Shown: in pieces, positions 7,345 to 16,093 of the stretch
Numbering within the stretch: position 1 is the first letter of the stretch
How the letters are laid out: every line of letters begins with the position of its first letter
Assembly: GCF_044324785.1 (NCBI RefSeq)
Contig: NZ_CP172130.1
Length of the DNA: 44,355 nucleotides
Reading direction: 5' to 3' (one strand)
Source: Escherichia coli
GTDB lineage: Bacteria > Pseudomonadota > Gammaproteobacteria > Enterobacterales > Enterobacteriaceae
Notes under the pieces: model-generated
The model's input: the letters and a program-made list of their open reading frames with translations, nothing else
Database searches by the model: none
What the model was told of the DNA's origin: nothing
Made by a program: the position numbers and the translations under genes

Positions 7345-10269
7345 TTAAGCAACGTTTTCTGCCTCTGACGCCTCTTTTAATGGTCTCAGATGTCCTTTGG
7401 TCACCAGTTCTGCCAGCGTGAAGGAATAATGGCCGAGCATATTGATATGTCCGTGGCAAAGCGGGGAGAGGCGTGCGATATCTTCATCATTCAGTGTTTC
7501 ACCCTGCGCCCGGAGATGATCCAGGGCTGCCTGCATATAAATAGTGTTCCATAACACGACGGCGTTAGTGACCAGCCCCAGTGTGCCCAGTTGATCTTCC
7601 TGACCGTCGGTATATCGTTTTCTTATCTCACCTTTTTGACCGTGACAGATGGCTCTGGCAACGGCATGGCGACTTTCTCCCCGATTAAGCTGGGTCAGAA
7701 TGCGCCGGCGGTAATCTTCATCATCAATATAATTAAGCAGATACAGCGTTTTGTTGATGCGCCCCACTTCAATGATTGCCTGAGTCAGTCCGGAAGGACG
7801 TTCACTTTTCAGCAATGAACGGACCAGCACTGAAACCTGTACTTTGCCCAGCTTCAGGGAGCCAGCGGTCCGGATCATTTCGTCCCACTGAAGGACTATT
7901 TTTCGGGGATCTGATTGCCCTCTGGCAATATCATTCAGCACGCCATAGTCGGCATCATGGTCCATTCGCCAGAAAACCGAAGCACCGGCATCAGCCAGGC
8001 GTGGAGAAAACTGGTATCCCAGCAGCCAGAAAAGGCCAAAGACAAGTTCGCTGGCACCTGCTGTATCGGTCATAATTTCGGTTGGATTCAGCCCGGTCTC
8101 CTGTTCCAGAAGACCTTCCAGCACAAAGATAGAGTCCCTCAGCGTCCCCGGTATAACGATGCCATGAAAGCCGGAATACTGATCGGACACAAAGTTGTAC
8201 CAGGTGATCCCTCTGTTATTACCAAAGTATTTGCGGTTCGGTCCGGCATTGATTGTTCTGACTGGCGTAACAAAGCGCATTCCATCTGCAGATGCCACTT
8301 CTCCTCCACCCCATATCTGTGCCAGTGGCAGCGTTGCCTGAAAATCAACCAGTCTGGCATTAGCGCTGGTGATAGTTTCAGCCCGCAGATAGTTCGCTTT
8401 TGTCCAGTTCAGCCGGTGTCGGGTCAGTGCAGGAACATTTGATCTGATCAGTGGTTCCAGACCGATATTGCAGGCTTCAGCCATCAGCACGGCGCTGATG
8501 CTGACGGGCAGATCATCAACTCTGGCACTGGCTTCACTAGCATGGAAAAACTCATCAGCAAATCCGGTATGGGCGTTAATTTCGAGCAGCAACTCCGTTA
8601 AATCCACCGGAGGGAGTAGATCACTGATCATTTTGCTCAGTCGTTTCAGACTGTCCGGCTCATCAAGACTGGCGAGGGGAGAAATTGTCAACCGGGGCTT
8701 CGGGCCAGAAACATCGAGTTCGACAGCCTCATTTTCGCAAAGACGTGCAGCAACCTGTCTGTAACGACTATCAAGCTGATGACCCAGAGATTTTATTGCT
8801 TCCTGCGGGTCTGTCGGGTGCCCCAAAGAACGATAAACCTTAATCCGGTTTGCCTGCCAGTCAGCACCCTGTAGTAATCTTGCACGAGGATCTCCCCACC
8901 GGTTACTGCCGGTAACGTAGACATCCCTCCGCCTCAGACTATCCTGCAGTTTACTGAGAAAGCAGAGCGTGTATCCCCTGCGGGTGATATGTTTTTCCTT
9001 GTTAATCACCAGCCGTTTCCATGACCGACTGATAATTTCCGTTGGTGCGTCGTCAAAAAACTGCCGCCGTGAGCTGAACTCCCGGCTGAGGTAGTCACAG
9101 GCATTCAGAGTGGTAACCCCGGCAGGTGCGGATGAAAATTTAACGGTATTCAGCAGATGGGGCAGGAAACGACGAACGCGCCCGTACTGCTCCACCATTT
9201 CTTCATGAAAATTATCGTCTGAGGGCCGGGCAATTTCACGGACAAGCGTGATGATTTCAGCCAGCTTTTGCCTTGGGATGTAGCTGAACACCTCAGCACG
9301 AATCGATTCGTCCGGTGTTTCTTCTTTCAGCAGGTACGAACATGCGCTGGCGAGCGCCAATGCAGATTTATCCAGATCCTTCAGCGAGCGGAGCCGTTTT
9401 TTCTGCCCAATCTTTCTGGCGTCACGGATGATAACGGCCAGCATGGCGTCCAGAACGTCCAATGCATCATCCAGCGCCAGCGTTTCCCATGCAAGGACAA
9501 AGGCAACCAGAACCGCCATCCTTTTCTGCGGTGACATCCTGGCAATATTGAACACCGAAGTCATACCAGCATAACGTGCGAGATTTTTCAGGCGCACAGC
9601 CGGGAGTGTACTCAGGTTTTCAGCATGCAGGCCAAAATCGTTCAGAGTTTTCCAGCGTTCAATTGCTTCATTAAACGCCGGACCACTGATGGTCACAGGG
9701 CCCTTTTTCAGTGATTCCAGTAAAGACAGGCGGCTGCAATCAGTTGGCCCCAGCAGCATCTCCAGCTGTGAACGCTGTTCGGCTGACGGTATCAGTGCCA
9801 GTTTGTTCCACAGGCGCAACGTCGCCTTTTCCCTTACCTCTGAAATCAACCGGGTCAGCGTAGTGGCTCCGGGGAGAATAATACGATGTTGCATAAGCCA
9901 CCCTGTCGCCAGATCGAAAAGCAGGCCAGGACGTTCGTTGCTTATCCAGCTCCGGGTATATAAAAGACGGGTAAGGCGAAATGTCCAGGGCCAGGCAAAT
10001 TCACGATACTGATAGTGCTGACGTATCAGCGCTGCATGCTCACGGCGGGTATTTTCCCTCTGACCGTATTCTGCAAGAACGGTGATATCACGAATCCCGA
10101 GCTGTCTGGCGGTAAAATGCCGGACGCCGGAAGGAATATGATTCATATCGGTGAGGAAGGTGCCCAGAAAACGGACACATCCAATTTGCAGGGCAATGCC
10201 CAGACGGTTGTGATCACCTCTGCTTTTTCCGATAAATTCCTTGTCTGCTTCATCAAGGTGAAAATATCG
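7345..10269 (-). pseudogene. tnpA: Tn3 transposase tnpA, 3' portion (interrupted by IS26)
   Basis: Translation matches Tn3 TnpA from ...[12 protein letters not shown]... to the C-terminus; stop codon lies within the terminal IR; reading frame is broken at 10269/10270 by the IS26 end. Confidence 0.85.
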
Positions 10270-11089
10270 GGCACTGTTGCAAAGTTAGCGATGAGGCAGC
10301 CTTTTGTCTTATTCAAAGGCCTTACATTTCAAAAACTCTGCTTACCAGGCGCATTTCGCCCAGGGGATCACCATAATAAAATGCTGAGGCCTGGCCTTTG
10401 CGTAGTGCACGCATCACCTCAATACCTTTGATGGTGGCGTAAGCCGTCTTCATGGATTTAAATCCCAGCGTGGCGCCGATTATCCGTTTCAGTTTGCCAT
10501 GATCGCATTCAATCACGTTGTTCCGGTACTTAATCTGTCGGTGTTCAACGTCAGACGGGCACCGGCCTTCGCGTTTGAGCAGAGCAAGCGCGCGACCATA
10601 GGCGGGCGCTTTATCCGTGTTGATGAATCGCGGGATCTGCCACTTCTTCACGTTGTTGAGGATTTTACCCAGAAACCGGTATGCAGCTTTGCTGTTACGA
10701 CGGGAGGAGAGATAAAAATCGACAGTGCGGCCCCGGCTGTCGACGGCCCGGTACAGATACGCCCAGCGGCCATTGACCTTCACGTAGGTTTCATCCATGT
10801 GCCACGGGCAAAGATCGGAAGGGTTACGCCAGTACCAGCGCAGCCGTTTTTCCATTTCAGGCGCATAACGCTGAACCCAGCGGTAAATCGTGGAGTGATC
10901 GACATTCACTCCGCGTTCAGCCAGCATCTCCTGCAGCTCACGGTAACTGATGCCGTATTTGCAGTACCAGCGTACGGCCCACAGAATGATGTCACGCTGA
11001 AAATGCCGGCCTTTGAATGGGTTCATGTGCAGCTCCATCAGCAAAAGGGGATGATAAGTTTATCACCACCGACTATTTGCAACAGTGCC
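10270..11089 (-). mobile_element. IS26, copy 1 (820 bp)
   Basis: 14-bp terminal inverted repeats GGCACTGTTGCAAA; encodes Tnp26; identical to the other two copies. Confidence 0.9.
10322..11026 (-). CDS. tnp26: IS26 transposase Tnp26
   Basis: [34 protein letters not shown]...; 234 aa from the MNPFKG start. Confidence 0.9.
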   Translation of the reverse strand: MNPFKGRHFQRDIILWAVRWYCKYGISYRELQEMLAERGVNVDHSTIYRWVQRYAPEMEKRLRWYWRNPSDLCPWHMDETYVKVNGRWAYLYRAVDSRGRTVDFYLSSRRNSKAAYRFLGKILNNVKKWQIPRFINTDKAPAYGRALALLKREGRCPSDVEHRQIKYRNNVIECDHGKLKRIIGATLGFKSMKTAYATIKGIEVMRALRKGQASAFYYGDPLGEMRLVSRVFEM

Positions 11090-11091
11090 CT

Positions 11092-15184: not shown

Positions 15185-16004
15185 GGCACTGTTGCAAAGT
15201 TAGCGATGAGGCAGCCTTTTGTCTTATTCAAAGGCCTTACATTTCAAAAACTCTGCTTACCAGGCGCATTTCGCCCAGGGGATCACCATAATAAAATGCT
15301 GAGGCCTGGCCTTTGCGTAGTGCACGCATCACCTCAATACCTTTGATGGTGGCGTAAGCCGTCTTCATGGATTTAAATCCCAGCGTGGCGCCGATTATCC
15401 GTTTCAGTTTGCCATGATCGCATTCAATCACGTTGTTCCGGTACTTAATCTGTCGGTGTTCAACGTCAGACGGGCACCGGCCTTCGCGTTTGAGCAGAGC
15501 AAGCGCGCGACCATAGGCGGGCGCTTTATCCGTGTTGATGAATCGCGGGATCTGCCACTTCTTCACGTTGTTGAGGATTTTACCCAGAAACCGGTATGCA
15601 GCTTTGCTGTTACGACGGGAGGAGAGATAAAAATCGACAGTGCGGCCCCGGCTGTCGACGGCCCGGTACAGATACGCCCAGCGGCCATTGACCTTCACGT
15701 AGGTTTCATCCATGTGCCACGGGCAAAGATCGGAAGGGTTACGCCAGTACCAGCGCAGCCGTTTTTCCATTTCAGGCGCATAACGCTGAACCCAGCGGTA
15801 AATCGTGGAGTGATCGACATTCACTCCGCGTTCAGCCAGCATCTCCTGCAGCTCACGGTAACTGATGCCGTATTTGCAGTACCAGCGTACGGCCCACAGA
15901 ATGATGTCACGCTGAAAATGCCGGCCTTTGAATGGGTTCATGTGCAGCTCCATCAGCAAAAGGGGATGATAAGTTTATCACCACCGACTATTTGCAACAG
16001 TGCC
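15185..16004 (-). mobile_element. IS26, copy 3 (820 bp)
   Basis: GGCACTGTTGCAAA terminal inverted repeats; followed immediately by AAATATCG, which duplicates 10262..10269. Confidence 0.9.
15237..15941 (-). CDS. tnp26: IS26 transposase Tnp26
   Basis: Identical protein to copies 1 and 2. Confidence 0.9.
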
Positions 16005-16093
16005 AAATATCGTGCCAGCTGAAGCTCATCCGGTTCACCGGTGAATCTGCCATAGCTTTCAGTCTGCTCAGTGGTCAGAAAGTCAACGGGCAT
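16005..16093 (-). pseudogene. tnpA: Tn3 transposase tnpA, 5' fragment (first 29 codons)
   Basis: Encodes [29 protein letters not shown], then is cut by IS26; continues in frame with 10269 once the IS26-bounded segment and one copy of the 8-bp duplication are removed. Confidence 0.8.

Follow-up and report, generated by a model that had tools for sequence, protein, structure and literature searches.

How did a 5.7-kb block bounded by IS26 come to lie inside the transposase gene of a blaTEM-carrying transposon, and what has the interruption done to that transposon? We addressed this question on a 44,355-bp stretch of Escherichia coli DNA (NZ_CP172130.1; "the window" below means this whole stretch), which is a whole circular IncX1 plasmid (1-44355) with rep as its first gene. 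The block comprises 5,735 bp, or 5,743 bp including one target duplication, and interrupts tnpA. We consider it likely that it is a standard IS26 array, in the form of overlapping pseudo-compound transposons, within Tn2 on a conjugative IncX1 blaTEM-52 plasmid, and that it would have been built from a resident IS26 to which translocatable units (TUs) were added.

The IS26 block in tnpA, its empty site and its probable growth

Three IS26 copies in direct orientation, with tnp26 on the minus strand in each, bracket a 495-bp orphan segment and a truncated class 1 integron, as the initial annotation described. On re-inspection the 8-bp duplication around the whole was likewise intact. The features of the block are as follows (aa, amino acids; ORF, open reading frame; IR, inverted repeat; 3'-CS, 3'-conserved segment).

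10262..10269, no strand: 8-bp IS26 target duplication AAATATCG, left copy; single-copy in NZ_LT985262.1 and NZ_OR237794.1
10270..11089, minus strand: IS26 copy 1, 820 bp, with 14-bp IRs and tnp26 of 234 aa; identical to copies 2 and 3
11090..11584, plus strand: IncN backbone remnant of 495 bp, holding the 3' end (93 codons) of an Mrr-like restriction-endonuclease gene and a 65-aa ORF
11585..12404, minus strand: IS26 copy 2, without a target duplication of its own; flanks ACCGGTAA and ACTTGACC
12405..12456, minus strand: piece of the 3'-CS, 52 bp; matches at 100% identity the DNA that separates aadA2 from qacEdelta1 in NZ_CP020060.1
12494..13315, minus strand: lnu(F) cassette ORF, encoding a 273-aa lincosamide nucleotidyltransferase; full-length match to NCBIfam NF000119 Lnu(F) at 606 bits (cutoff 450)
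13447..14235, minus strand: aadA2-type cassette ORF, streptomycin/spectinomycin nucleotidyltransferase; matches the NCBIfam ANT(3'')-I equivalog at 503 bits (cutoff 375)
14387..15184, plus strand: truncated intI1, codons 1-266 of 337, without the C-terminal part; NCBIfam PRK15417, profile positions 1-266 of 337
15185..16004, minus strand: IS26 copy 3, read from the sequence
16005..16012, no strand: 8-bp IS26 target duplication AAATATCG, right copy, read from the sequence

The three copies are 100% identical over 820 bp, each has both perfect 14-bp IRs (GGCACTGTTGCAAA), and by sequence identity they equal the IS26 of R46, pHg, NZ_CP020060.1 and pSCMY2. The 234-aa ORF, starting from IS26 position 64, matched the IS6-family transposase profile (NCBIfam NF033587, 275 bits against a cutoff of 125), and a scan of the whole window found no further IS26 copy or IS26 end. 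Only the outermost flanks agree; the remaining IS26 flanks, CTTTACAG, ACCGGTAA, ACTTGACC and CCGTAGAA, are mutually unmatched (two given 8-mers match by chance with a probability of 1/65,536).

An uninterrupted counterpart exists in RCS52TR719_p (NZ_LT985262.1, E. coli, IncX1, 38,610 bp; plasmid source paper Branger et al. 2018, PMC6202452). It shares with the window the backbone, the Tn2 site, the TATAC duplication and a TEM-52-type bla gene, and differs in that its tnpA is uninterrupted and without IS26 and that its TEM has an extra A to V change at linear position 222. Positions 26374-36642 of NZ_LT985262.1 aligned with window 1-10269 at 100% identity (zero mismatches over 10,269 bp), positions 36635-38610 corresponded to window 16005-17981, and positions 1-26373 to window 17982-44355. 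The alignments on either side of the block overlap by exactly the duplicated 8 bp, as do those of NZ_OR237794.1, which confirms the insertion point and the duplication against an uninterrupted Tn2. The window is as long as NZ_LT985262.1 plus the 5,743-bp block, save one substitution and two 1-bp indels; outside the block the two plasmids differ in one TEM codon and two single-base indels. When position 10269 was joined to 16013, that is, when the block and one duplication were removed, the tnpA frame was restored as had been claimed: the resulting ORF of 3,006 nt (1,001 codons and a stop) encodes a protein equal to the intact TnpA of NZ_LT985262.1.

From these alignments, NZ_LT985262.1 is to be read as a documented empty site for the IS26 block. 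Together, the 8-bp duplication, the in-frame rejoining and the independent empty site show that ordinary copy-in brought IS26 into tnpA, a replicative insertion into codon 30 of the Tn2 gene that duplicated the 8 bp AAATATCG. Neither outer IS26 has since deleted or inverted the Tn2 DNA beside it.

In the uninterrupted target (10240-10269 plus 16013-16030) the 8-bp site lies between the halves of a 6-bp inverted repeat, GCTTCA ... TGAAGC. TGCC comes directly after it, so that GTGCC, the five bases with which the IS26 end closes, begins on the final base of the target, perhaps only by chance.

IS26 arrays, or pseudo-compound transposons, were reportedly described in 2014 by Harmer, Moran and Hall as structures built by TUs. 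The block resembles such a TU array in that identical direct IS26 copies alternate with unrelated segments, the 8-bp duplication is present at the outer ends only, and the segments recur in other contexts with identical boundaries; it differs in that one segment, the 495-bp IncN remnant, is without a resistance gene, and in that the structure is known here from sequence alone. Two TUs would have joined the resident IS26, one made of IS26 and the 495 bp of IncN DNA (1,315 bp) and the other of IS26 and intI1Δ-aadA2-lnu(F)-3'CSΔ (3,600 bp), either by a targeted conservative reaction dependent on Tnp26 or by RecA recombination between IS26 copies. By each route one IS26 and one segment would be gained, with every copy in direct orientation, without a further duplication and with the outer one preserved. 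According to the review by Varani et al. (2021, PMC7986276), elements of the IS6 family produce 8-bp repeats and form arrays of direct copies, and no IS copy is gained through TUs or through the targeted conservative route. The addition of an IS26-plus-segment unit beside a resident IS26 without a new duplication is published behaviour of IS26 (PMC7986276).

Two other plasmids bear on this growth. The first, pSCMY2 (NZ_CP122518.1, E. coli, IncF), has an IS26 array at the same Tn2 tnpA position, in the same orientation and with both outer junctions of the window, laid out as tnpA-AAATATC(G)/IS26-dfrA17-intI1-IS26/(A)AAATATCG-tnpA; its duplication is that of the window save two 1-base homopolymer differences resembling read errors. 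It differs in its cargo, dfrA17-intI1, in its plasmid type and in a Tn2 that is cut further, in tnpR, by a third IS26 (G184N). The second, NZ_CP104480.1 (Salmonella enterica, IncX1, 44,362 bp), shares with the window the backbone, the Tn2 site, the IS26-intI1Δ-aadA2-lnu(F)-IS26 unit and both junctions of that unit (99.89% identity, with 4 mismatches and 1 gap over 4,424 bp); lnu(F) is annotated there at 100%, and its aadA2 is called at 99.62%. Its array, however, is inverted, IS26 meets tnpA at the window equivalents 8654 and 16029, 1.6 kb of tnpA is deleted without a duplication, and there are an extra aac(3)-IId segment and a TEM-1 gene.

Growth by IS26-targeted additions fits this comparative evidence, since the cargo of pSCMY2 differs, the integron unit is found elsewhere in NZ_CP104480.1, and no duplication flanks the internal IS26. 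That a resident IS26 came first would also be the simpler reading, because pSCMY2 shares the outer junctions around other cargo.

The possibility that NZ_CP104480.1 descends from the window structure by rearrangement was rejected, since its IS26 positions, orientation and allele (G184N) differ and it has no duplication. By this comparison it represents an independent IS26 history that has acquired the integron unit of the window. The IS26 copies of NZ_CP104480.1 (8648-16035) and one copy of pSCMY2 (12261-13080) carry two adjacent substitutions that give Tnp26 G184N; the window has the standard allele. The G184N form of Tnp26 has been reported as more active.

We then counted the IS26 junctions of the window in 72,556 PLSDB records with 54-nt queries (27 nt from each side); 301-bp junction queries were dropped, being swamped by records with IS26 and Tn2 nearby but unjoined. 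The internal junctions are denoted J2 (IS26/orphan), J3 (orphan/IS26), and J4 and J5 (the two integron junctions). All six IS26 junctions of the window occur elsewhere. The right outer junction (IS26 against the tnpA-tnpR-bla side) was present in 84 PLSDB records and the left outer junction in 14, across several genera and replicon types, and both together in only 2 of the 72,556 records: pSCMY2 and, with the two far apart, NZ_CP020060.1. Moreover, the 46-aa product reading from the tnpA stub into IS26 (15953-16093, minus strand) was called on 619 public contigs.

For the orphan segment, 1,288 PLSDB records cover at least 80% of a 549-bp query, the best ones spanning the orphan and J3. The segment is 100% identical to R46 (NC_003292.1) and to many more IncN plasmids, and J3 is a common IncN junction, present in R46 and in most of these 1,288 records; an NCBIfam profile search of the 495 bp gave no match. 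BLAST found J2 neither in PLSDB nor among complete E. coli genomes, a scan of species-representative genomes gave none, and a metagenome scan found no IncN/IS26 junction in either orientation. By exact look-up, however, the 118-aa ORF across J2 (11017-11373, plus strand) was on 9 public contigs, and the idea that J2 is unique to this plasmid was rejected. Six of the nine are IncN contigs whose backbone runs on past the right boundary without IS26; another two, of 699 and 747 bp (L017 and L018), are identical to the window across both orphan junctions, each in two samples. J4 and/or J5 were found in 575 PLSDB records, many of which carry both, because the places in them number 794, and the intI1Δ-IS26 fusion protein was on 600 contigs. 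An exact look-up of fusion products thus served as a quick count of a given IS26 junction across public assemblies; the junction ORFs of 118 and 46 aa are publicly annotated as hypothetical or DUF4158 proteins.

The integron fragment spans 2,780 bp (12405-15184). IS26 truncates its intI1 at 15184/15185, and the catalytic C-terminal part is missing. Both cassette ORFs, lnu(F) and the aadA2-type gene, are in cassette orientation beside 52 bp of 3'-CS, and we recognised by eye what we take to be the attI1 region and attC sites. The fragment is a remnant and not a functional integron.

Some observations weigh against stepwise growth from a resident IS26. Among the PLSDB matches listed (45 of 125 candidates), none has a single IS26 in the window orientation between its two flanks; where a synthetic single-IS26 query matched in several pieces, IS26 copies lay close to an uninterrupted site. 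The sequence does not reveal which of the two units was added first, and the arrangement of the two segments depends on the assembly, as three identical 820-bp repeats defeat short reads.

Origin of the founding insertion and other routes to the array

The founding insertion is not private to this plasmid, and import by recombination or a recurrent strike are both possible. It is not assignable to this plasmid because the same junctions occur in the 84 and 14 PLSDB plasmids and on the 619 contigs, and because the target is also occupied by IS26 in the opposite orientation. Accordingly, the account given in the initial annotation, entry of IS26 followed by growth without later deletion, holds for the duplication, the empty site, the comparative fit and the intact Tn2 flanks, and not for an event placed on this plasmid.

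In the import scenario, an IncX1 plasmid with an intact Tn2 would have received the IS26-interrupted interior when its Tn2 arms recombined, by homology, with those of an interrupted Tn2 in the same cell, and the founding insertion would then be identical by descent with that of the other plasmids. The alternative is a new, independent IS26 insertion on this plasmid at a preferred target, and we hold the two evenly balanced. Import would explain a position and orientation shared by plasmids of several genera and replicon types and both junctions standing in cis in pSCMY2, and the Tn2 arms offer about 3 kb and 1.3 kb of identity in which crossovers could fall. On the other hand, the Tn2 arms are identical in every compared copy, so that no breakpoints are visible, and donors with both junctions in cis are rare (the 2 of 72,556 records above). 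An independent insertion is favoured by opposite-orientation IS26 in the same 8-bp target, once as a simple single insertion with the same duplication (CP080158.1), and by the unrelated IS26 boundary of the sister plasmid NZ_CP104480.1, just 24 bp from the IS26 site of the window; in-place flipping of IS26 would, however, void the opposite-orientation copies as evidence of a hot spot.

The opposite orientation was traced through its predicted products. A 35-aa stub ending LALLQS was on 114 contigs, and its junction was confirmed in DNA at 8 loci; the corresponding left fusion proteins are on record, a 987-aa one on 45 contigs, with the junction confirmed at 10 loci. CP080158.1, a 145,740-bp plasmid, has a complete Tn2 with one IS26 and AAATATCG on both sides. 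It agrees with the window in the Tn2 sequence, the target, the AAATATCG duplication and the IS26 sequence, and differs in having a single IS26 in the opposite orientation without cargo, a Tn2 sited elsewhere (TAAAA duplication) and TEM-1. Further, the boundary between intI1 codon 266 and IS26 (15184/15185) is also joined, at the same nucleotide, to the other IS26 end on 20 contigs, against 600 for the form in the window, and one of these twin contigs (L037) holds a whole IS26 and DNA beyond it. In a catB3Δ/IS26 control, the predicted twin protein is, in that reading frame, the same as the product of a gene truncated where a contig stops within the 14-bp IR.

Copy-in, intramolecular deletion or inversion, the conservative reaction and IS26-IS26 recombination would each keep a flank on the same IS end, as derived in this analysis. 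Because the canonical reactions do so, a hot spot or an in-place flip is needed, and we tentatively suggest that IS26 may have nucleotide-precise hot spots used in both orientations, or may flip in place via its 14-bp terminal repeats, although we would not presume either to be probable. Neither was found described for IS26 in the literature searched, including IS26 in opposite orientations at the same position.

As to the array itself, entry in one step is an unlikely route. Here a prebuilt 5.7-kb array would have struck AAATATCG with its outer IS26 as a cointegrate, and IS26-IS26 recombination would then have left the array flanked by a new duplication, a product indistinguishable from stepwise growth (mechanism in PMC7986276). 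Ready-made parts exist, as short contigs of other assemblies carry the IS26-495 bp-IS26 unit with a sequence identical to the window and the integron unit is widespread as an IS26-bounded piece (the 575 PLSDB records with J4 or J5). Yet one-step entry needs a fresh strike on the very target in which other replicons already have IS26 in the same orientation; the outer junctions of pSCMY2 with other cargo are simpler if a resident IS26 preceded; and a full-array donor was found neither in PLSDB nor among complete E. coli genomes. A whole-block search (7000-18500) also gave no PLSDB record of like structure, its best matches being patchworks of common elements. The literature search found nothing relevant for AAATATCG or CGATATTT with IS26, or for an IncX1 TEM-52 lnu(F) plasmid; the R1215 paper was rejected as an account of the window junction, since it deals with Tn1.

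An assembly artefact, with the IS26 copies collapsed in short reads and the placement and order of the segments set by the assembler, is highly improbable: all six junctions join a unique end to an IS26 end, so that either segment order should yield the same junction set, and other assemblies hold the orphan only as 699-747-bp contigs, but the window is closed at 44,355 bp with the length of the sister plasmid plus the block, and IS26-integron-IS26 was assembled as one 4.4-kb stretch in NZ_CP104480.1.

The interrupted Tn2 and blaTEM-52

The preferred reading, a resident IS26 enlarged by TUs, places the array in a transposon with the following features.

7307..7311, no strand: 5-bp Tn2 target duplication TATAC, left copy, read from the sequence; matches 18005-18009
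7312..7349, plus strand: 38-bp Tn2 terminal IR, tnpA end, GGGGTCTGACGCTCAGTGGAACGAAAACTCACGTTAAG; BLAST self-match to 17967-18004
7345..10269, minus strand: 3' part of tnpA, codon 30 to the stop, without its start; the rejoined ORF gives the intact TnpA of NZ_LT985262.1
16005..16093, minus strand: 5' stub of tnpA, codons 1-29 and 2 nt, reading into IS26 to give the 46-aa product
16257..16814, plus strand: tnpR resolvase, 185 aa, intact; equal to WP_001235713.1 of the sister plasmids, with serine-recombinase family matches
16997..17857, plus strand: blaTEM-52, with E104K, M182T and G238S relative to TEM-1; NCBIfam blaTEM, 665 bits
17967..18004, minus strand: 38-bp Tn2 terminal IR, bla end, read from the sequence
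18005..18009, no strand: 5-bp Tn2 target duplication TATAC, right copy, read from the sequence

The element spans 7312-18004, measures 4,950 bp once the block is removed, and has the layout tnpA / res / tnpR / blaTEM. The res region presumably lies between 16094 and 16256, where we placed it from the Tn3-family layout. The host transposon had been called Tn3. In a comparison with the Tn2 of pHg that covered Tn2 positions 585-4950, it was 100% identical over 585-2830 and, over 2826-4950, differed only at the 3 positions of the TEM-52 changes, whereas its identity to the Tn3 of pKPN-068 was 98.7% and 97.2% over the parts present there; these Tn2 and Tn3 copies were the references used. The transposon copies in pHg and pKPN-068 are the reference Tn2 (AY123253) and Tn3 (HM749966), and Tn2 is frequently mislabelled as Tn3 (Partridge, PMC4611040). 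Because the identity to pHg is 100% and the pHg copy equals the reference Tn2 (PMC4611040), the sequence identifies this transposon as Tn2 and not Tn3. Direct comparison with TEM-1 showed that bla is the extended-spectrum beta-lactamase (ESBL) allele TEM-52 and not TEM-1, since the three differences are E104K, M182T and G238S; in NZ_CP104480.1 and NZ_OR237794.1 the gene is TEM-1.

IS26 stands within tnpA codon 30, and the product of the promoter-proximal stub has 29 native residues and 17 read from IS26. The loss of transposase function noted earlier is borne out: with TnpA cut to a 29-residue stub, the Tn2 here is a defective derivative without functional TnpA, which cannot transpose by itself. 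Both 38-bp IRs, res, tnpR and blaTEM-52 are intact. Mutants of Tn3 tnpA can be complemented in trans, and TnpA supplied in trans could still mobilise the interrupted Tn2. Moreover, the IS26 beside the tnpR-bla arm is, on this evidence, a vehicle for that arm, because the IS26/tnpA-tnpR-bla junction is spread over many replicons. The suggestion that the insertion fixes blaTEM in place was therefore overstated, as the IRs, res and tnpR are intact, the bla arm can be carried by IS26, and the plasmid belongs to a conjugative type.

The IncX1 plasmid and the meaning of the array

The IncX1 type and the MPF_T/MOBP transfer region follow from collinearity, at more than 99.9% identity, with PLSDB records typed IncX1, conjugative, MOBP and MPF_T. 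In the related IncX1 plasmid NZ_OR237794.1, Tn2 lies at 12883-17915 in the same orientation as in the window, 73 bp from the Tn2 site of the window and with its own 5-bp duplication; it is a second independent Tn2 insertion in one short backbone stretch (window 7234-7311), beside the dqlB toxin gene. The backbone also holds a 110-nt inverted repeat, 87% complementary (1359-1468 and 40329-40438), upstream of both IncX "DNA distortion polypeptide" genes, and a direct repeat of about 105 bp, 91.5% identical (41710-41813 and 42620-42724), among small hypothetical backbone genes, which the sister plasmids have as well.

The array is an ordinary, well-understood resistance-gene mosaic that involves no new mechanism and leaves knowledge of IS26 or Tn2 unchanged. 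It shows an IncX1 blaTEM-52-Tn2 ESBL lineage gaining streptomycin/spectinomycin and lincosamide resistance via IS26, which makes a co-selected multiresistance plasmid, and it is a clean example, in which the ancestral empty site can be set beside both the product and a sister outcome. In addition, the occupancy of one target in both orientations bears on an assumption used in the genealogy of resistance plasmids, namely that a shared IS26 junction means shared ancestry.

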